Shown here: in pieces, positions 30,038-39,680 of the stretch | Numbering within the stretch: position 1 is the first letter of the stretch | Layout of the letters: the number at the start of each line of letters is the position of its first letter | Assembly: GCA_965662525.1 (NCBI GenBank) | Contig: CBFIHQ010000001.1 | Span: 52,535 to 116,534, forward strand | Length of the DNA stretch: 64,000 nt | Direction of reading: 5' to 3' | Source: an uncultured Porticoccaceae bacterium | GTDB lineage: Bacteria; Pseudomonadota; Gammaproteobacteria; Pseudomonadales; Porticoccaceae | Made by a program: the position numbers and the translations under genes | Notes under the pieces: generated by a model | Databases searched by the model: none | Told to the model about the DNA's origin: nothing | The model's input: only the letters and a program-made list of their open reading frames with translations

Positions 30038-30109
30038 AGCCATCCTCTCTGTACAGAGCTCTAAATCAGGTGGCATGCCACCAACCAATGTAAATTGAGG
30101 AGCAAAAAA

Positions 30110-30469
30110 ATGTCAAATAAGATGCCTATCATCGCTGCTTTAGAAGCAGAGCAGATGGAGAAAAAAATCCCGGATTTTGGTCCAGGTGATACAGTTTCGG
30201 TTAAGGTGAAAGTTAAGGAAGGTAATCGCGAGCGCCTACAGGCTTTTGAAGGCGTGGTGTTAGCCAAGCGCAACCGTCAACTTAATTCAGCTTTTACTGT
30301 AAGGAAGATTTCTAATGGTATTGGTGTTGAGCGTACATTCCAAACCTATAGCCCATTAGTCGATAGTATTGAGGTTAAGCGCCGCGGTGCTGTGCGCAGA
30401 GCCAAGCTTTACTATCTTCGTGAGCGTTCAGGAAGATCAGCAAGAATTAAAGAAAAGCTGTCTAAATAG
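30110..30469 (+). CDS. rplS: 50S ribosomal protein L19
   Basis: [22 protein letters not shown]; ATG 30110 after GAGGAG. Confidence 0.99.
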
Positions 30470-30475
30470 CTCTTC

Positions 30476-30507
30476 AAAAAAGCGATCCAAAGGGTCGCTT
30501 TTTTTTG
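30476..30507 (+). terminator. Intrinsic terminator after rplS
   Basis: AAAAAAGCGATCC-AAA-GGGTCGCTTTTTTTT. Confidence 0.9.
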
Positions 30508-30725
30508 CACTAATTTTCTTATGAAAACCCTAAATATTGCGTCTATTATTAAGTCAGTTACAATAAAAGTGGCGCTAATTATTATCGCGGTATCGGTTTA
30601 ACTTTGGACAATGACTAAGGGGCAGGGATGCTTTATACTCAATTTAACAATATATTTTATAACGAATTGGAAAGCTTGATTTTACACAGAGGCCTATGTT
30701 CTTTTTTAGGTGTGGTGGTTAGATA

Positions 30726-31403
30726 ATGCATATTCTTATAGTAGACGACCATGCTTTTGTCTGTGAAGGCCTGAAGGCTACATTGATCGATAAATTGAAA
30801 GATGTAGAGGTAACAACAACAGAGCGAGGAGAAGAAGTTCTTTCTATTCTTGCCGAAAATGATATTGATTTAATAATTCTGGATCTATTTATGCCCGGGG
30901 GCTATGGTGGTTTTGGTCTTATTGGGCTTGTGAATGAGCGCTATCCTTGCTTGCCAATCATTGTTTTATCAGCATCTGAAAATTCTGCTCATATTAGAAA
31001 GTGTTTGGAGTTGGGGGTGACTTGCTTTGTCACGAAATCAGCTCCCAAAGAGTCATTGTTTGAAGCGATTTCCAAAGCATTAAATGGAGAGCAGTATGTG
31101 CCTAAATATCTTATTGAGGCACTGCCAGATGTTGCTCGAGTGATTGATGAAGTGGACTCTGGGGTTAATGTTGAAATTATTGCCGAATTAATCACAGATA
31201 GACAATTTGATATTTTAAGTTATATAAGCCGCGGGCATTCAAATAAACAAATAGCTCGAGGTTTGGGGCTGTCCGAGAATACAGTTAAAGTTCATGTGAG
31301 CGCTATGTTAAAGTCCCTAGGTTTAACTAATCGAACCCAGGCTGGTATACTTGGTCAGAAACTTGGGTTGGCTGAATCAGTGGATTTAGAATCTGATAAT
31401 TAA
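30726..31403 (+). CDS. NarL/LuxR-family two-component response regulator
   Basis: REC domain (VDDH, LDLFMP, SA, FVTKS) plus LuxR HTH (TDRQ...SNKQIARGLGLSENTVKVHVS...NRTQA). Confidence 0.95.
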   Translation: MHILIVDDHAFVCEGLKATLIDKLKDVEVTTTERGEEVLSILAENDIDLIILDLFMPGGYGGFGLIGLVNERYPCLPIIVLSASENSAHIRKCLELGVTCFVTKSAPKESLFEAISKALNGEQYVPKYLIEALPDVARVIDEVDSGVNVEIIAELITDRQFDILSYISRGHSNKQIARGLGLSENTVKVHVSAMLKSLGLTNRTQAGILGQKLGLAESVDLESDN

Positions 31404-31467
31404 GCATTTTAAAACCACCATAAAACTATAATAACATGCATTTTTTGGCTGTAGAGGGTTTAAATTA

Positions 31468-33561
31468 ATGAAGTCTTCGCGAAATAAAGCATATCTTTTA
31501 GCTCTGGCTTCTGGACTTTTTTCAACCTGTGTGCTGGCAGATTATGGGGTTATCACCGAGGATGATTTATTTGCAGAAATTGATTATGTCTCTGGTGTAA
31601 CTCACCTAAGGCAAGATCTTCAGCAGGTACCTGCTGCAGTGACGATTATTGATCGCAGAACAATAGAGTCATCAACTGCGGTTGATTTGGTGGACTTGTT
31701 TCGTCTAGTTCCTGGCTTTCAAGTTTACTTTCATCATGGTAATAAGCCGGGAGTGACCTATCATGCTCATGGCGGTGAGTACTCTCGTCGCTTAGAGGTC
31801 AAAATTGATGGGCGCTCTGTTTATGAGCCGTTATTATCCTCTGTAGAGTGGAACACTCTGGGTGTTGAGCTGGATGATATTGAGTATATTGAGGTGGTTC
31901 GAGGTTCAAACACGCCAGCCGATGGAAGTAATGCCTTTCTTGCCTCAATTAATATAGTTACTCGTTCGCCATTAGCTAATTTAGATGCTGATTACAGTGT
32001 TGATTATAGTGCTCAGGGCCATAAACGCAGCAAAATTTCGTACTCATCTCATATGGGGCAGCTCGCCTCTCGGGCTTCAATAAAAGTCAGCGATAATGAT
32101 GGATTTGTGGATATTGATGATACGGCAGAAACTGTAACTATGAGATATCAGGGGTTATGGACGCCAACAATACAAGACAGTATTAATTTCCAGTTAGGTT
32201 ATGGTGATACAGACACAACAATTGGCTCTAAGCACTATCTTGATCGTAAATGGAAAAATAAGTATCAGCATATTGCATGGGAAAGAGTGACCAATAATTG
32301 GAGCGATATTGAACTCTCTATTTATCATAATGTAATCAATTTTATGGATGAGGAATTGCCTATAAATGTAGGCGATGTTCTTGGCGAATGGGGTGCTGAT
32401 GAGAATGGTGAGTCAAATAACGAAGATGTCGTTCTTACACCAGAAACTCAAAATATTTTAGAAAATGAACCCAACCAGAAAAAATATATTGTATATCCCA
32501 GTTATTCTCATTATTCCGATCGCTGGGATGCTGACTTAAGAGCCAATATCTATCGCTATGATAACTTGAGGATGAGCCTAGGCTTTGCCTCTAGATATGA
32601 TAGCCTGAGCAGTGCGTTATTTTTAGGTGGCAATCGCACAGTCTCTGAAAACTCTCATAGGTTGTACGCTAATTTAGAGTGGACGGCAAAGGATAATCTA
32701 GTTTTTAACTATGGGCAGGCCATAGAAAAAAGAAGACACAAGGCTGGTACTGATTCATATCGTATTGCAGCAAATTATAAGTTCTCAAATGAACATATTT
32801 TTCGTGTTGCCTCCAGCCAAAGTTTCAGACAGCCAAGCCTTTTAGAGGCAAATCAAAGTTCCACCTATTACTATAATGAAATTGTCATGAATATGCCTGT
32901 TAGGTCGGATATAGATATTGAAAAAGAGCGTTTGATTAGCCGTGAGATAGGGTATTTGGGTTCTTTTCAAGATAAAAACCTCAGTCTTGATATAAGACTA
33001 TTTGAAGAACATCTTACCGATCTTATTGGTGAGCGAAGAGAGCCTTTTATCGGTGAGACGCAGGATATAATTAATATTATAGACAATATTGAAGATCTTG
33101 ATTTGCGTGGGATCGAGTGGCAATTGCAATACAAGCCATCAAATAGCTTAATGATCAATTTTAATCACAGCTATATAAATGCTGAGGGTGATAGTTGGTT
33201 TTATTCTATCACCTCAAATGATGATGTGGCGACGCCAGACTTTGATGTTATTTTACCTCTTGAAGATATGCTGCCTAAGCAGATGAGCAATCTATTGGTT
33301 ACTTATCGAATGCAAAATGGCTTAATGCTCAGTGGTTCTCATCATTATCAATCGGGTTACAAAACCAAAGTAAGTTTATCTGAGCAGCCTTCGGGTAATT
33401 CGCGAGTAGACTTAAAGGCATCTAAGCGATTTCAGTACGGCAATAATTGGCTAGAGTTGTCTTTTACTGCGCAGAATGCTGGCAGTGATTATTCAGAGCA
33501 TCATGCATTTAATATTTTTAAAAGCAAATATATTTTTGGTATAAAAATGGGATCCAATTAG
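31468..33561 (+). CDS. TonB-dependent receptor (plug + beta-barrel), non-siderophore type
   Basis: Signal peptide; plug motifs PAAVTIIDRRTI, DLFRLVPG, IDGRSVY, DDIEYIEVVRG, INIVTR; barrel strands; FRQPSLLE. Confidence 0.9.
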   Translation: MKSSRNKAYLLALASGLFSTCVLADYGVITEDDLFAEIDYVSGVTHLRQDLQQVPAAVTIIDRRTIESSTAVDLVDLFRLVPGFQVYFHHGNKPGVTYHAHGGEYSRRLEVKIDGRSVYEPLLSSVEWNTLGVELDDIEYIEVVRGSNTPADGSNAFLASINIVTRSPLANLDADYSVDYSAQGHKRSKISYSSHMGQLASRASIKVSDNDGFVDIDDTAETVTMRYQGLWTPTIQDSINFQLGYGDTDTTIGSKHYLDRKWKNKYQHIAWERVTNNWSDIELSIYHNVINFMDEELPINVGDVLGEWGADENGESNNEDVVLTPETQNILENEPNQKKYIVYPSYSHYSDRWDADLRANIYRYDNLRMSLGFASRYDSLSSALFLGGNRTVSENSHRLYANLEWTAKDNLVFNYGQAIEKRRHKAGTDSYRIAANYKFSNEHIFRVASSQSFRQPSLLEANQSSTYYYNEIVMNMPVRSDIDIEKERLISREIGYLGSFQDKNLSLDIRLFEEHLTDLIGERREPFIGETQDIINIIDNIEDLDLRGIEWQLQYKPSNSLMINFNHSYINAEGDSWFYSITSNDDVATPDFDVILPLEDMLPKQMSNLLVTYRMQNGLMLSGSHHYQSGYKTKVSLSEQPSGNSRVDLKASKRFQYGNNWLELSFTAQNAGSDYSEHHAFNIFKSKYIFGIKMGSN

Positions 33562-33608
33562 TTCACATAACGAATGTCTTAATTTATTGGTAGGGTATAT
33601 AGAAATTA

Positions 33609-34592
33609 ATGTTAAGTTTAAAGGTTAAAGGTAGAGCCAAGTTAGGGGCGAGAAATACTCTGTATTTCAGCGCTCGCTGGCTTCTTTTGGTCTTTTTATT
33701 TGCTTGCGCCCATGCAAATTCGTATAAATTGGACCGTATTCTCTTTATTCTCAGCAAGAATTCCCCAGAATATCAAGAGATAGTAAATTCTATAACTACT
33801 AGCTGGGGTGATAATAAAGCAATCAGCTATGAGATTTTGATTCAAAACGAACAGGCTGGTTTAGATAAAAGCCTTGAAAAATCGGATCTTGTTGTTACCT
33901 TAGGTACTGTTGCTGCCGATAGAATTTTGGCTAGAAAAATTTCTCAACCACTGATAACTACCTTAATCACTGAAAGCGCATTTAATTCATTGTCTGAAAA
34001 GTACTACGGCAATAGCTCAGAGGCTGTATCCTCGGGAGTGAATCCTATTTTCTTAGATCAGCCATTTGAGCGGCGATTAAAACTTGCCTGTCGATTGGTT
34101 GATCAGCTCGATAAGGTAGGTGTTATGGTTGGCCCATCAGTAGTTGCCAATCAAGAATTCTATACTTCTTCTATTTCGGAAAAAAGTTTAAAATCACACA
34201 TGATTGTCATGGATCCCGATAAAAATCCAATTAGACAGCTAGACCCCGTGTTTAAAACAAGTGATGTCTTTATTCCAATTGCCGATAGTCATTTTATAAA
34301 TGTAACTACCGCTAAATGGATTCTACAATTAGGTTATAGATACAGAGTACCCGTTATTGGGTATTCAGCAAATTATGTTGATGCCGGTGCATTGGCATCG
34401 GTTTATTCTTCTCCAGAGGATGTATCAAAACAAACAGCAGAGCTAATACAATCACTGCTCACTGAAAATCACAAACATCAGATACATACACCTAAATATT
34501 GCACTATAAAATTCAATAAATCAGTGGCCTGGCATTTAAATTTAAATATCCCAGATGATTTAGAAAAGCAAAATGGGCGCTGCGATTTATGA
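33609..34592 (+). CDS. Periplasmic substrate-binding protein (ABC_sub_bind-like) with no cognate permease nearby
   Basis: Hydrophobic signal ending AHA; LVVTLGT; RVPVIGYSANYVDAGALASVYSSPEDV; start uncertain; ATGA overlap with kinase. Confidence 0.8.
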   Translation: MLSLKVKGRAKLGARNTLYFSARWLLLVFLFACAHANSYKLDRILFILSKNSPEYQEIVNSITTSWGDNKAISYEILIQNEQAGLDKSLEKSDLVVTLGTVAADRILARKISQPLITTLITESAFNSLSEKYYGNSSEAVSSGVNPIFLDQPFERRLKLACRLVDQLDKVGVMVGPSVVANQEFYTSSISEKSLKSHMIVMDPDKNPIRQLDPVFKTSDVFIPIADSHFINVTTAKWILQLGYRYRVPVIGYSANYVDAGALASVYSSPEDVSKQTAELIQSLLTENHKHQIHTPKYCTIKFNKSVAWHLNLNIPDDLEKQNGRCDL

Positions 34593-36832
34593 AGCAGTTG
34601 CTTAGTCGTAATAGTATTTCTTATCGACTATTAATCACTGGATTAATTCCACTGACGCTTCTTAGCATCCTGATGGGTTATTATTTTATCTCTTATCAAA
34701 GAGCTGAGATGTTGGGAAACTTGCATGATACAGGTCACATTGCAGTGCGACAGGTTTCTCAAAATACGGCCTTTGCACTCTATTCAGGTGACCGTAAAAG
34801 TTTGGACTCTCTAAGCTATGCTACGCTAGAAACACCCTCTGTATCTGGAATTTTTTTTTATAGTTACACGGATGCTAAATCAATAATTATTGGCGATTTT
34901 AAATTCGAAGAAATACCAAAAGATTTTATTCGAACTGAGCCTTTCGAGGTTGATGGGTACTGGTATTTTTTCTCTGAAATACTGTCAGATCGGGCGCCAA
35001 TAATGGACTACGAGAACTCTACTCAATATGAACCTGAAAAAATTGGTTGGGTATTAGTTTCACTGAGTGATCGTTTGATGAGAGAAAAGGAGCTTGGTTT
35101 TTTTCTTACAGCGGCAACTGTGGTCTCCTTTAGTCTTCTTTTAGCCTTTTGGTTATCTATTCGAATTGGTAGAACCGTAGCTGATCCCTTAGAGCAATTA
35201 ACCAATGTTGTTGCTGAGTTGGAGTCCGGGAATCTCGAGGTTATTGCTTCTGAAGATGGCTTGGTCGAATTGTCAGAGTTGTCTCGAGGTATTAATGGCT
35301 TAGCGACTAGCGTTCGAGAATCTAATCAATTGATGCAAAGTGAGATTGATCGAGCTACAAGTCAATTAAAAAGGGCATTAGCCGACTTAGAGCAAGCTAT
35401 GCGAGCTAAGGATCAGTTCTTGGCAAGAATGAGTCATGAGCTAAGAACGCCGTTAACTGCAGTTTTGGGTTTTTCAAATATGTTATTCACAGAGGTGAAT
35501 GAGTCAAAGCGTGAGGAGCAATTAAGGGTAATACAGCGCTGCTCAACTGTTTTATTGACTATGATTGATGATGTTCTTGATTTTTCTAATGCTGATCTTG
35601 GCGGCTTTACTTTAAATAATAGTTTTTTTGCTCTTGATAAATTTATTGAGGATTTAACGGCGCTATTTCGCCTGCAAGCAAATGAAAAGGGGCTAGAGTT
35701 TAGTATGTCCCATGAGGGTGAAATTCCTAAAAGTATACACAGCGATCCAGTTCGGCTAGCACAGGTAATAACTAACCTAGTTAATAATGCTATTAAGTTT
35801 ACCGATTCTGGCTTTGTTTCAGTAAATTTAAAGATGGAAGACTGTCATGATGGTCATGATTATTTGCAGTTTGTTATTAAAGACACGGGTAAGGGTATTG
35901 TAGAAGATAAAATACTAACGTTGTTTGAGCCTTTTACCCAGGAGGATACATCGATCAATCGTCATTATGGCGGCAGCGGTTTGGGATTATCAATTGCCAA
36001 GCGCTTGGTTGGCGCAATGAATGGCGATATTACAATAAAAAGTAAGGTAAATATTGGCACTGAAGTAACGTTTACTTGTCGCTTGGAAAAGGATAGTAAA
36101 AATCTTAAAAATACTGATCAGTCATTACTAACCGAAATTGTTACTCAACAAGATGAAGTTTTGTCAGATATCATTATTCTACTAGCAGAAGACAATGAAT
36201 TTAATCAGAAATTTATGCTTAGATTATTAGAACGCCATGGCGCGACTTGCTCAATTGCAAAAAATGGTCAAGAGGCTATAGAAATCGCGCGAAATAATAA
36301 TTTTGATCTAATTTTAATGGACCTGCATATGCCAATTATTAATGGCATAGAGGCTACCAAGGCCATTGTTAAAGAAATTAAAAATAGTCCTCCAATAATT
36401 GGGCTGACTGCCGACATAACAGCTACAGAGCAAAATAAATTAATCTCTGCGGGTGCCAAAAGCGTTCAACTTAAGCCAGTTGATGAAGTAGATTTAATAA
36501 ATACTATTTTAGAATCGATAAATGCTAAAGAAATGCCGCAGACATTTTCTGGGGAAGGAATGCTGGCATCTGTTCTTCCAGTGGCGGACCTAAAGAAAGC
36601 AATTGTTGATAATCTTGATAGCCTAGAGAGTTGTTTGCATGCCAATGAGCAAATGCTTATCAGACCGTTAATCCATGATTTATTGGGTTTTTGTGGTTTG
36701 TATGGAATGACTGGTCTCAGAGATATAGTGCTTGAGTTGAAAAATTCCTATGCCGTTTTAGATAATTCGAAAAATTTACAACAGGTTAAACGTATCCGCC
36801 AATATATGGACGAGTCACCTATTTTTAGCTAG
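34589..36832 (+). CDS. Unorthodox hybrid sensor histidine kinase, GacS/BarA-like (TM-periplasmic-TM-HAMP-HisKA-HATPase-REC-HPt)
   Basis: H-box FLARMSHELRTPL; NLVNNAIKFT; DTGKGI; GGSGLGL; REC LAEDN...LILMDLHMP...KP; HPt-like IHDLLGFCGLYG. Confidence 0.93.
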   Translation: MKQLLSRNSISYRLLITGLIPLTLLSILMGYYFISYQRAEMLGNLHDTGHIAVRQVSQNTAFALYSGDRKSLDSLSYATLETPSVSGIFFYSYTDAKSIIIGDFKFEEIPKDFIRTEPFEVDGYWYFFSEILSDRAPIMDYENSTQYEPEKIGWVLVSLSDRLMREKELGFFLTAATVVSFSLLLAFWLSIRIGRTVADPLEQLTNVVAELESGNLEVIASEDGLVELSELSRGINGLATSVRESNQLMQSEIDRATSQLKRALADLEQAMRAKDQFLARMSHELRTPLTAVLGFSNMLFTEVNESKREEQLRVIQRCSTVLLTMIDDVLDFSNADLGGFTLNNSFFALDKFIEDLTALFRLQANEKGLEFSMSHEGEIPKSIHSDPVRLAQVITNLVNNAIKFTDSGFVSVNLKMEDCHDGHDYLQFVIKDTGKGIVEDKILTLFEPFTQEDTSINRHYGGSGLGLSIAKRLVGAMNGDITIKSKVNIGTEVTFTCRLEKDSKNLKNTDQSLLTEIVTQQDEVLSDIIILLAEDNEFNQKFMLRLLERHGATCSIAKNGQEAIEIARNNNFDLILMDLHMPIINGIEATKAIVKEIKNSPPIIGLTADITATEQNKLISAGAKSVQLKPVDEVDLINTILESINAKEMPQTFSGEGMLASVLPVADLKKAIVDNLDSLESCLHANEQMLIRPLIHDLLGFCGLYGMTGLRDIVLELKNSYAVLDNSKNLQQVKRIRQYMDESPIFS

Positions 36833-36909
36833 TGCTAATTCAATAAAGGATTTAGCACTTAAGTATTAGTGCGTCAGTGTCATTTTAATTTACTACAACA
36901 TGATCTAAA

Positions 36910-37168
36910 TTTAACAGTGCAAGATCGACTGTCCAAGCAGGAAGCATTTAAATGGATTTACATTGGTTCGCAAGCATAAACCCATACACCATTGTTAAGT
37001 CTCTGTAGTTTCATTCTTCGATCAAATTTGTTCGATGGATGTATTGGGCTGTTGTTTCATGGTAGTCAACATTTACGGCGACAGGGTAGTTGCTATGTAC
37101 CATAGATGGTACAGGTCGATTTTGTTATTTACTCCCTCTTTAAACCTCGCTCCTGCGAGGTTTTTTTT
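36910..37168 (+). ncRNA. Candidate sRNA or structured long 3' UTR downstream of the hybrid kinase
   Basis: About 430-nt gap in an otherwise tightly packed genome; several hairpins, three ANGGA motifs, strong terminator at the end; 5' end undefined. Confidence 0.4.
37142..37168 (+). terminator. Intrinsic terminator
   Basis: AAACCTCGC-TCCT-GCGAGGTTTTTTTT. Confidence 0.9.
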
Positions 37169-37262
37169 ATATTTAGAAAAAAACAGTACATAAAACTAAA
37201 AGTAATTCTTTTCTCTCGATAGTATTAGTCATAGACTGTTTAAAACTTCACAAAGAATCTAT

Positions 37263-39680
37263 ATGAAAAAAGAAAAACCCATTATCGATAGCTTTGCAAA
37301 CCGTGAGGCATCTAAGTATCAAAACCCTATTCCAAGTCGAGAGTTTATTCTTGATTATCTGGAGCATAGTGTAGGCCCATTAACCCACGAGGCGGTCTGT
37401 ACAGGTCTTAATTTAACCGATCCTGAGCAAGTTGAAGCCATGCGCCGTCGATTAAACGCTATGGAGAGAGATGGGCAGCTGGCTAGAAACCGTCGCGGTG
37501 GTTATGGCACGCTGGAAAAACTTAATTTGGTTAAAGGAAGAGTTATAGGTCATTCAGAGGGTTTTGGTTTTGTCTCGCCACTCAGTGGTGAGGGTGACGA
37601 TATATTTCTTTCTAGCGCACAGATGCGGCGTGTATTTGACGGCGACATTGTATTGGTTAGGGTGGCGGGATGGGATAGGCGAGGTCGTCCTGAGGGCTCA
37701 TTAGTAGACATAGTAGAGCGAGCTACGCACCAATTGGTCGGTCGTTATTTTCGTGAAAGTGGTATCAATTTTGTAAGACCGGATAATCCAAGAATTAGTC
37801 AGGATATTTTAATTTCTGCAGATCGTCCCTGTCCGGCAAGTCCTGGGCAGATAGTGGTAGTAGAAATTTTGGAGCCACCTACACGAAATAGTCTTCCTGT
37901 AGGGTTTGTTTCCGAAGTATTAGGCGAGCATTTAGATCCTGGTATTGAAATTGATATGGCGGTTCGCAATTATGGTATCCCCTTTCAATGGAATGACGGA
38001 GTTGAGGCGGAAACAGCCGATATCCCATCGGAGATTTCCCATACAGATTCAAGAGTTGATATAAGATCGATACCATTAATAACGATTGATGGCGAAGATG
38101 CTCGTGATTTTGATGATGCGGTGTATTGTCGGCCTAAAGCACGAGGCGGGTGGGAGCTTATTGTTGCCATTGCCGATGTTTCTCATTATGTGACTGTGGG
38201 TTCTGAATTAGATAAAGAAGCTTTCTCTCGAGGAAATTCTGTATATTTCCCGAATCACGTAGTGCCCATGCTACCGGAAAAGTTATCCAATGGACTCTGT
38301 TCACTAAATCCTGCTGAAGATCGTTTTTGCATGGTGTGTGAAATGCAAATTAGTGAGCAGGGTGATATCACTGGTTATCAGTTTTATGAGGGCATCATGC
38401 ATTCTCATGCTCGTATGACCTATACCCAGGTAGCGCAGATAGTAGCTGATAAAGATCATACTTCTGCAGCAAGGGAGCAGTTTAGCGCGGTACTACCGCA
38501 AATTGATGCGTTACAGGACTTGTCCCAGCGATTACAAAAATGTCGTAGTCAGCGTGGTGCTATAGATTTTGATACTCGAGAAACGCGAATACTTTTTGAT
38601 AGCAAGCGCAAAATAAGTCAGATTATTCCGGTGGATAGAACCGATGCCCACCGTTTAATTGAGGAGTGCATGCTATGCGCTAATCTGTGTGCTGCGGAAT
38701 TTTTACACAAATCTAAACTGCCGGCACTCTATCGAGTGCATGAGGGGCCAAGCGAAGAAAGATTAATCTCGGTAAGGGATTTCTTAGGTGAATTGGGTAT
38801 TGGATTGGGTGGGGGTGATGAGCCGCAGCCTATGCATTATCGGCAAGTACTACATGCTGTTAGGCACCGTGATGATGCTCAAATTATCCAATCTGTTCTG
38901 CTTCGTTCTATGAGTCAGGCGGTTTATCAGTGTGAAAATTTAGGCCATTTTGGTTTAGCATTTGACGCCTACACTCACTTTACTTCACCTATTCGCCGTT
39001 ATTCTGATTTATTAGTTCATCGTGCAATACGCAGTTTGATCAAAAGCGGAAAAAAATCCGCCCATATTCGGCGAGAAGGTAAACAGCCTAATGTTGATAA
39101 GGCTATTTATTATCCCTATGAGTTATCTTCTCTTGAGGAGGTGGGGCAGCATCTATGTGTAACTGAGCGTCGCGCTGACGAGGCGACACGGGATGTAGTC
39201 AACTGGCTAAAGTGTGAATTCCTGTTAGATCGCGTTTCTGAGCAATTTACTGGGGTTGTTAATGCGGTAACAGGCTTTGGTTTATTTGTGATGCTGGACG
39301 ATTTGATGGTGGAGGGCTTAATTCATGTTACCGGTTTGCCAAAAGATTATTATCACTTTGAAGCATCACAGCATCGAATGGTGGGCGAGCGAACTGGCAG
39401 GACATTTAGGCTGGGTCAAAAGGTCAAAGTAAAGGTTGTTCGGGTTAATTTGGAAGAGAGAAAAATTGACTTTGAACTTATAGACAAGGCATCTAATCAG
39501 TCTCATGCGACCAAGCCAAGGAATTTTGTTAAAGCGTCAGATGACCGTTCGAAAAAGCCCAGAACTAAAAAACCTGGTGCCAGAACGTCTAGTGGAAAAA
39601 AGTCCTCAAGCAGCCGCACTAAAACGAAGACAAAGGCGGGTAGCTTTAATGCAAAAAGAAAGCGTAAATCTAGGCGTTAA
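37263..39680 (+). CDS. rnr: Ribonuclease R
   Basis: TIDGEDARDFDDA, HFTSPIRRYSDL, S1 domain, basic C-terminal tail. Confidence 0.98.
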   Translation: MKKEKPIIDSFANREASKYQNPIPSREFILDYLEHSVGPLTHEAVCTGLNLTDPEQVEAMRRRLNAMERDGQLARNRRGGYGTLEKLNLVKGRVIGHSEGFGFVSPLSGEGDDIFLSSAQMRRVFDGDIVLVRVAGWDRRGRPEGSLVDIVERATHQLVGRYFRESGINFVRPDNPRISQDILISADRPCPASPGQIVVVEILEPPTRNSLPVGFVSEVLGEHLDPGIEIDMAVRNYGIPFQWNDGVEAETADIPSEISHTDSRVDIRSIPLITIDGEDARDFDDAVYCRPKARGGWELIVAIADVSHYVTVGSELDKEAFSRGNSVYFPNHVVPMLPEKLSNGLCSLNPAEDRFCMVCEMQISEQGDITGYQFYEGIMHSHARMTYTQVAQIVADKDHTSAAREQFSAVLPQIDALQDLSQRLQKCRSQRGAIDFDTRETRILFDSKRKISQIIPVDRTDAHRLIEECMLCANLCAAEFLHKSKLPALYRVHEGPSEERLISVRDFLGELGIGLGGGDEPQPMHYRQVLHAVRHRDDAQIIQSVLLRSMSQAVYQCENLGHFGLAFDAYTHFTSPIRRYSDLLVHRAIRSLIKSGKKSAHIRREGKQPNVDKAIYYPYELSSLEEVGQHLCVTERRADEATRDVVNWLKCEFLLDRVSEQFTGVVNAVTGFGLFVMLDDLMVEGLIHVTGLPKDYYHFEASQHRMVGERTGRTFRLGQKVKVKVVRVNLEERKIDFELIDKASNQSHATKPRNFVKASDDRSKKPRTKKPGARTSSGKKSSSSRTKTKTKAGSFNAKRKRKSRR

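Follow-up and report, generated by a model that had tools for sequence, protein, structure and literature searches.

A conserved gene cassette of TonB-dependent receptor, orphan binding protein and hybrid sensor kinase in a marine Porticoccaceae bacterium: a probable Pah-type periplasmic sensing system

Results

A four-gene cassette between rplS and rnr

A stretch of 64,000 nucleotides from the genome of an uncultured Porticoccaceae bacterium (contig CBFIHQ010000001.1 of assembly GCA_965662525.1; hereafter the window) contains, between rplS and rnr, a cassette of four genes encoding a NarL/LuxR-type response regulator, a TonB-dependent receptor, an orphan periplasmic binding protein and a tripartite hybrid sensor kinase. 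This cassette is probably a system for TonB-gated periplasmic sensing of the PahS/PahP/PahK/PahR type, in which a signal would pass from the receptor to the binding protein, from the binding protein to the Cache-like ectodomain of the kinase and, through a phosphorelay, to the adjacent regulator. It is not a new kind of system: by architecture, gene order and protein size we assigned the locus to a sensing type that has been published once, in Cycloclasticus, and of which it is a new member. What we observed directly is the gene content of the cassette, the domain make-up of its products, their conserved linkage and the modular variation among related loci.

The four open reading frames (ORFs) all lie on the + strand, and their reading frames are intact and full length. 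The regulator gene (30726-31403, 225 aa) encodes REC and GerE domains according to Pfam; it is followed by the gene for the receptor (31468-33561, 697 aa), a member of a cassette-specific subfamily with Pfam Plug and TonB beta-barrel domains, by that for the binding protein (33609-34592, 327 aa), which Pfam places in PF04392 and which forms a subfamily there, and by that for the hybrid kinase (34589-36832, 747 aa), whose parts were recognized with Pfam and NCBIfam. Gaps of 64 nt separate the regulator from the receptor gene and of 47 nt the receptor from the binding-protein gene, while a 4-nt ATGA overlap joins the end of the binding-protein gene at 34592 to the start of the kinase gene at 34589. 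A preliminary description of the window, made from the letters alone, had reported these four co-oriented genes with the same gaps, overlap and placement between the rplS terminator and rnr, and proved exact at all coordinates. It had also reported no ATP-binding cassette (ABC) permease or ATPase and no pair of extracytoplasmic function (ECF) sigma and anti-sigma factors, and our domain scan agreed, finding neither an ABC permease or ATPase, nor an ECF sigma factor, nor an anti-sigma factor within or beside the four-gene block. The host is a small-genome marine gammaproteobacterium of the SAR92/Porticoccaceae type, with an assembly of 1.31 Mb that is 81% complete. Between positions 30500 and 37000 of the window, the G+C content of the cassette is 0.36-0.41, against 0.42-0.45 in the ribosomal-protein and rnr flanks.

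Distribution and linkage of the cassette

The binding protein was found in 15 of the 24 genomes sampled from the same genus, and the block of regulator, receptor, binding-protein and kinase genes was kept in all 14 of the same-genus loci that we fetched, most of them flanked by rplS and/or rnr. The block is also found, at 28-46% identity, in other families of the order, once with the genes in the order regulator, binding protein, receptor, kinase. A family-alignment scan of named genomes yielded 47 loci that span Porticoccaceae, other Pseudomonadales, Chromatiales, Thiohalobacter, Burkholderiales, Thiobacillaceae and Rhodocyclales. Counted by hand, a sensor gene lies directly 3' of the binding-protein gene in 45 of them, and a receptor of the same subfamily belongs to the cluster in 33. 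All the cassette sensors start with sCache_4-HAMP and continue into one of two outputs, either HisKA-HATPase-REC(-Hpt) or (PAS-)GGDEF-EAL; the regulator gene adjoins the kinase-type cassettes in most of the Pseudomonadales loci. Judged by the synteny kept over dozens of genomes, the gene arrangement is far beyond chance.

The family is not confined to this order. In an even draw of 400 Gammaproteobacteria genomes from 321 genera, the binding-protein subfamily was present in 77 genomes (19%) and 63 genera, and the same neighbours, receptor included, were found in about three quarters of the loci fetched from that draw. Moreover, a search of 1.84 billion representatives with the binding-protein profile retrieved 1519 clusters at E<=1e-30, and cultured carriers of the family include Neptuniibacter, Marinobacterium jannaschii and Nitrincola. 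Among the 115 flanking ORFs of 28 loci, neither ABC_tran nor BPD_transp_2 recurred. The preliminary description had staked its reading on a neighbourhood survey of this kind, holding that the four genes should stay together and that homologous binding proteins should not consistently pair with ABC permeases. In line with both, the same-genus loci that were fetched keep the block, and the binding protein, usually together with the receptor subfamily, co-occurs with a kinase or a GGDEF-EAL enzyme and without recurrent ABC parts. Apparent "Rosetta-stone" fusions of the binding protein in high-GC genomes were discarded, as they are merely upstream frame extensions that overlap the receptor gene. 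In three loci of one uncultured gammaproteobacterial group (L048, L054 and L056), genes for a PutA-like proline dehydrogenase (~1060 aa) and a 441-aa PALP-family enzyme precede the regulator, binding-protein, receptor and kinase genes, possibly a hint to the regulon or ligand in that group.

Within the genus, the site between rplS and rnr occurs in several states. In two genomes rplS lies directly beside rnr; in two others only the regulator and kinase genes are present, the receptor and binding protein being absent together; and in one (G004, locus L162) a C-terminal remnant of the kinase is all that is left at the same site. The receptor is split in two pieces in G005 (L017) and G021 (L020), and in G023 (L032) the binding protein lies in two frames and the kinase in three pieces. 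As read from these sequences, the cassette is repeatedly lost and is dispensable in some lineages. Since the receptor and the binding protein are missing together, the two behave like a single accessory unit that adds an input to a two-component core.

The receptor belongs to a subfamily of its own

The receptor carries a signal peptide and matches the Pfam models of the plug (48.5 bits) and the barrel (62.8 bits), and Pfam detected no STN signalling domain in it. In the alignment, a conserved stretch ahead of the plug falls where the TonB box usually lies, and TonB itself (TonB_C) is encoded in the genome. About 10 residues before this TonB-box-like stretch lies an acidic motif, TE(D/E)DL(F/L), which is common to cassette receptors from Porticoccaceae to Burkholderiales and reads TEDDLF here (window 31552-31572, residues 29-35); it may be a candidate periplasmic docking site. 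The nine other receptors of the same genome scored at most 60 bits against the cassette receptor, in the plug region only, and the cassette receptors of Betaproteobacteria and Chromatiales scored 186-293 bits over their full length. On these alignment scores, the cassette receptors are a subfamily of their own that accompanies the binding protein.

The binding protein is a class I protein set apart from its transporter-linked relatives

The binding protein scored 44.3 bits against the ABC_sub_bind model of Pfam (PF04392), whose cut-off is 25.9; its signal peptide is cleavable, and it lacks a conserved lipobox cysteine. Its AlphaFold2 (AF2) model, built on an alignment of 85 sequences, has a complete two-lobe class I fold with a predicted local distance difference test score (pLDDT) of 91.6. 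The structures closest to this model are the PF04392 proteins 3LKV, 3LFT and 6HNI/6HNJ, the best fit being to CD0873 in its open form; lower in the list of structural matches stand LuxP, TorT and XylFII, which are kinase co-sensors. The profile of the binding protein matches 3LKV at 8.7e-14. In phmmer comparisons, the E value to 3LKV is 5e-6 and those inside the subfamily are 1e-50 or better.

The genome contains only one PF04392 gene, and a cognate permease was not found in the 81%-complete assembly. Its only BPD_transp_2 permeases belong to a urea/amide-type transporter that has its own Peripla_BP_5 protein, two ATPases and a formamidase. On contigs C28 and C31, this transporter and formamidase adjoin a 1139-aa hybrid kinase and a 302-aa REC-GerE regulator, a locus that amounts to a second hybrid kinase beside a binding protein in this small genome.

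The kinase and the regulator resemble BarA/GacS and NarL in architecture

The kinase is laid out as a transmembrane segment, a Cache-like periplasmic domain of ~134 residues (~residues 36-169), a second transmembrane segment, HAMP, HisKA, HATPase and REC domains and a diverged Hpt domain. In the AF2 model of residues 1-210, a long helix is followed by short helices, a five-strand sheet and another long helix, and the modelled ectodomain is Cache/PDC-like, with matches to WalK, to a LapD-type periplasmic domain and to Cache ligand-binding domains. The Hpt histidine is kept across the kinase family, and the catalytic His and Asp motifs are present in this copy. From this order of domains, the relay would run H1-D1-H2 and then to the receiver domain of the regulator, as the preliminary description had proposed. 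The kinase is 73-90% identical to its nearest relatives and is one of only about six HisKA genes in the ~1.3-Mb assembly.

The best NCBIfam model for the kinase is BarA, at 394 bits against a cut-off of 890, and LuxQ and TorS are among the best matches to its core. The regulator stays under every NCBIfam equivalog cut-off: 129 of the required 390 bits for ErdR, 107 of 250 for NarL and 64 (63.7) of 280 for UvrY/GacA. With equivalog scores this low, the terms "GacS-like" and "NarL/LuxR" describe the architecture of the two proteins, not their orthology. The same scores rule out that the kinase and regulator are the BarA/UvrY pair of the genome. The identity of the regulator as ErdR/CrbR was likewise ruled out (129 vs 390 bits), and a pair with the CrbS-like 1139-aa kinase sits elsewhere in the genome.

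Transcription signals and a conserved non-coding element

The flanking genes rplS and rnr occupy positions 30095-30469 and 37263-39680. Upstream, the cassette is bounded by the intrinsic terminator of rplS (~30479-30508, + strand), a hairpin followed by T8 whose stem shows compensatory changes in a 7-genome alignment. Promoter scanning and conservation point to a sigma-70-like promoter at 30611-30639 (+ strand; ATGACT, 17 nt, TATACT), which would drive the cassette, and the 7-genome alignment revealed a second conserved block, TCTATTATTAA, at ~30540-30556 on the same strand. Both the predicted promoter and this block are nearly invariant across the seven genomes, and the spacer around them varies. 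The sole strong terminator downstream of the cassette lies at 37142-37163, followed by T8. The ATGA overlap, a conserved promoter of its own and a single terminator after the block are consistent with transcription of the cassette as one unit.

Between the kinase gene and rnr lies a spacer of 430 nt, which holds a nearly invariant non-coding element of ~320 nt (36850-37170, + strand), identified by alignment, with the terminator just mentioned at its end. Its mean column identity over nine genomes is 83%, and the neighbouring binding proteins are 47-79% identical. Indels of 1-2 nt indicate that the element is not coding. The structure predicted by RNAalifold is closed by a long helix that shows compensatory changes, and it includes internal hairpins, an unpaired stretch containing CUCCCUCU and the terminator. 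The element is single-copy in the genome, diverged copies occur at the same place in a clade with larger genomes, and it is present in a genome with regulator and kinase only and absent where rplS abuts rnr; this pattern of presence indicates that the element is tied to the kinase and not to rnr. It may be a candidate small RNA, either derived from the 3' untranslated region (3'UTR) or independent, or a structured 3'UTR. A search of Rfam gave no match to it at E<=1, and GGA motifs are not enriched, so a Csr/Rsm-type or other known RNA was rejected as its identity. Similarly, the palindrome TGTACC-N6-GGTACA, considered as a regulator site, is more simply read as a stem of the predicted RNA.

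Comparison with the Pah system of Cycloclasticus

In Cycloclasticus sp. P1, one cluster encodes the receptor PahS (687 aa), the class I binding protein PahP (318 aa) and the kinase PahK (771 aa) (Wang et al. 2023, iScience, PMC10570129; gene table in PMC8547461), and the regulator PahR ("GacA", 215 aa) is not linked to them (PMC10570129). In the published model, a polycyclic aromatic hydrocarbon (PAH) binds PahS and is handed to PahP, which leaves PahS and docks on PahK, and PahR then alters transcription; surface plasmon resonance, co-immunoprecipitation, two-hybrid, fluorescence resonance energy transfer and ChIP-seq (chromatin immunoprecipitation with sequencing) evidence is reported for it (PMC10570129). 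The preliminary description knew of no mechanistic characterization of such a combination of proteins, and had allowed that its proposal would fall if the system were already described. In this it was overtaken: the Pah report provides the same architecture and proposes the same mechanism, so that at the level of concept the system had been described. A literature search under the Pfam names and a review of binding proteins in signalling yielded nothing on a receptor partner.

Size matching found no loci corresponding to 687/318/771 aa, and the published pocket residues of PahP were matched at no more than three of six positions in 392 family proteins and at no more than two of six in 49 loci. 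Quantitative PCR primers for Cycloclasticus 16S rRNA had no match in 401 sampled genomes, Cycloclasticus is not among the cluster names of the family (the names found were Neptuniibacter, Marinobacterium and Nitrincola) or among the hits of a further homologue search, and the ESM Atlas returned generic PF04392 clusters only. The pahS primer printed in the Pah report (Tn7-pahSf, PMC10570129) had 13 exact matches in metagenomes, all of them at the start of a gene for a 500-aa flavin-binding monooxygenase (L091-L103). Genes for short-chain dehydrogenase/reductase (SDR), metal-hydrolase, alpha/beta-hydrolase and FadL-like proteins surround this monooxygenase gene, with no TonB receptor among them. 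No ring-hydroxylating dioxygenase was seen in the 81%-complete genome of the window, which makes a PAH signal for PAH catabolism unlikely here.

Discussion

Proposed mechanism

We propose that the outer-membrane receptor would capture from outside a ligand that either is scarce or exceeds the size that porins admit and, with energy from TonB, would hand this ligand, or else a conformational signal, on to the periplasmic side. There the class I binding protein, which has no transporter, would take up the ligand and, once loaded, dock on the sCache_4 Cache-like periplasmic domain of the inner-membrane kinase, a contact that would switch autophosphorylation and the H1-D1-H2 relay. Finally, the NarL-type regulator encoded by the first gene of the operon would be phosphorylated and transcription would change. 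Much of this wiring had been put forward in the preliminary description, and the conserved linkage, the sCache_4-HAMP sensors, the receptor subfamily, the lack of recurrent ABC parts and the joint loss of receptor and binding protein speak for it; from the sequences we infer which way the information flows, which proteins touch one another and that phosphate is passed on. The place of the receptor and binding protein as inputs is indicated by the loci in which the same pair precedes a GGDEF-EAL enzyme, given that cyclic di-GMP (c-di-GMP) enzymes cannot regulate the transcription of their neighbours and the pair cannot then be their target. That import would serve sensing rather than nutrition, as the preliminary description also held, is the reading best supported by the comparative evidence, which bears it out in part.

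Several observations weigh against this scheme. The assembly is only 81% complete, which leaves room for an unlinked transporter. The sCache_4 (15.2 bits) and Hpt (13 bits) matches of this kinase copy are under the Pfam cut-offs; both domains pass them in a same-genus orthologue of the kinase and in distant cassette kinases. In about a quarter of the family loci no receptor gene lies close by, which makes the receptor a common partner but not an obligatory one, and the genomes that keep the regulator and kinase without the receptor and binding protein suggest that the kinase may also sense alone. Lastly, since the pahS primer matches a monooxygenase gene, the printed primer is not from a receptor gene, and the details of the Pah paper need care.

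Alternative explanations

The binding protein could instead act by sequestration, in the manner of YfiBNR, mainly as an inhibitor (or activator) of the kinase that the receptor holds or releases, in which case the ligand need not cross the outer membrane. This arrangement overlaps with the resting state of the Pah model, but the modelled two-lobe fold, with its cleft and hinge, points to the binding of a small molecule, a quarter of the loci have no receptor, and Pfam found no DUF4154 and no OmpA-like YfiB in the four proteins; we regard it as unlikely. Regulated uptake, in which the receptor and binding protein would be nutritional, controlled by the adjacent two-component system, and would deliver their substrate to an unlinked inner-membrane transporter, has known precedent in two-component systems that lie beside the receptor they regulate, such as PfeSR-PfeA. 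It also draws on the solved PF04392 members 3LKV, 3LFT and 6HNI, which are ABC binding proteins for aromatic amino acids, and on the incompleteness (81%) of the genome. We nevertheless judge it improbable, as the genome yielded no cognate permease or ATPase and none recurs in 28 other loci, the same pair fronts GGDEF-EAL enzymes, which exert no direct control of transcription, the binding-protein and sensor genes are translationally coupled, and the subfamily stands well apart from transporter-linked members (phmmer 5e-6 to 3LKV vs <=1e-50 within).

A cassette on its way out of a streamlined genome, with its signalling lost, would account for the lower G+C (36-41% vs 42-45% in the flanks), for the losses and split genes in the same genus (G005, G021 and G023, and the remnant in G004) and for the weak sensor-domain and Hpt scores of this copy. 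Such decay is hard to reconcile with four intact full-length frames that retain the His and Asp motifs and the Hpt histidine, with a kinase 73-90% identical to its closest relatives, with a conserved promoter and with the place of this kinase among only about six HisKA genes that the genome has kept, and we consider it very improbable. TonB-gated sensing through the binding protein and kinase stays our preferred reading.

Output, ligand and significance

Beyond this scheme, it is conceivable that the cassette senses a non-PAH compound of marine dissolved organic matter and that the ~320-nt RNA of the operon, with an anti-Shine-Dalgarno-like CUCCCUCU exposed before the terminator, is its post-transcriptional output arm, a combined proposal that we put forward tentatively and with considerable doubt. 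On a broader scale, and with the same doubt, the sCache_4 ectodomain shared with BarA/GacS may be a general docking site for a ligand-loaded binding protein; if true, this would help to find the input of the BarA/GacS kinases, a question of long standing to which the shared domain ties the present cassette.

The usual view casts TonB-dependent receptors as importers of nutrients or as companions of ECF sigma factors. A third path leads from the receptor through a soluble binding protein to a Cache-type sensor; a single experimental report describes it, yet it is widespread, and its outputs are kinases or c-di-GMP enzymes. That a streamlined SAR92-clade genome with only about six histidine kinases keeps the one of the cassette suggests that the signal matters for oligotrophic marine life. 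The variants of the same genus with and without the receptor and binding-protein pair offer a ready comparison for the ligand and the regulon.

Relation to known systems

Among c-di-GMP pathways, NspS-MbaA of Vibrio cholerae and YfiBNR of Pseudomonas aeruginosa resemble the GGDEF-EAL variants of the cassette in that a periplasmic protein controls a membrane-bound c-di-GMP enzyme. In YfiBNR there is an outer-membrane partner as well, and YfiR is similar to one half of the fold of PF04392, a likeness of fold and logic only. Their components are different, however: NspS is PotD-like, YfiR is a DUF4154 protein and YfiB an OmpA-like lipoprotein, neither system has a TonB-dependent receptor, and none of the YfiBNR domains (DUF4154 of YfiR, the OmpA-like domain of YfiB, GGDEF of YfiN) was found in the four cassette proteins. 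In FecA-FecR-FecI, as proposed here, transcription is the end point of a signal that begins at a TonB-dependent receptor in the outer membrane, but the cassette has no STN domain, anti-sigma factor or ECF sigma factor, and its relay would run through a soluble binding protein and a two-component phosphorelay.

The step from binding protein to kinase has its parallel in LuxP-LuxQ and TorT-TorS, where a hybrid kinase is bound at its periplasmic domain by a class I binding protein that serves no transporter; those systems differ in having no outer-membrane receptor partner and binding proteins of other Pfam families. Moreover, the ectodomain of LuxQ is tandem PAS-like and that of TorS helical, types unlike that of the cassette kinase. 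BarA, GacS and LetS share the tripartite kinase architecture and a sCache_4-type ectodomain with it. The kinase (394/890) and regulator (64/280) are far under the equivalog cut-offs for BarA/GacS and UvrY/GacA, and Rfam found no Csr/Rsm RNA. To our knowledge, BarA/GacS have no binding-protein or receptor partner.

The Pah system differs from the cassette in three respects. PahR is encoded elsewhere, and here the regulator gene opens the operon; PAHs are the ligands of the Pah system, and the ligand here is probably another; and PahK is said to be without a periplasmic sensor domain (PMC10570129), whereas the kinase family described here has a Cache-like one. The two are alike in the order of receptor, binding protein and kinase, in a NarL/GacA-type regulator, in the sizes of the four proteins (687/318/771/215 aa in Cycloclasticus and 697/327/747/225 aa here), in a class I binding protein without a transporter and, as proposed in both, in the use of the ligand as a signal and not as food.

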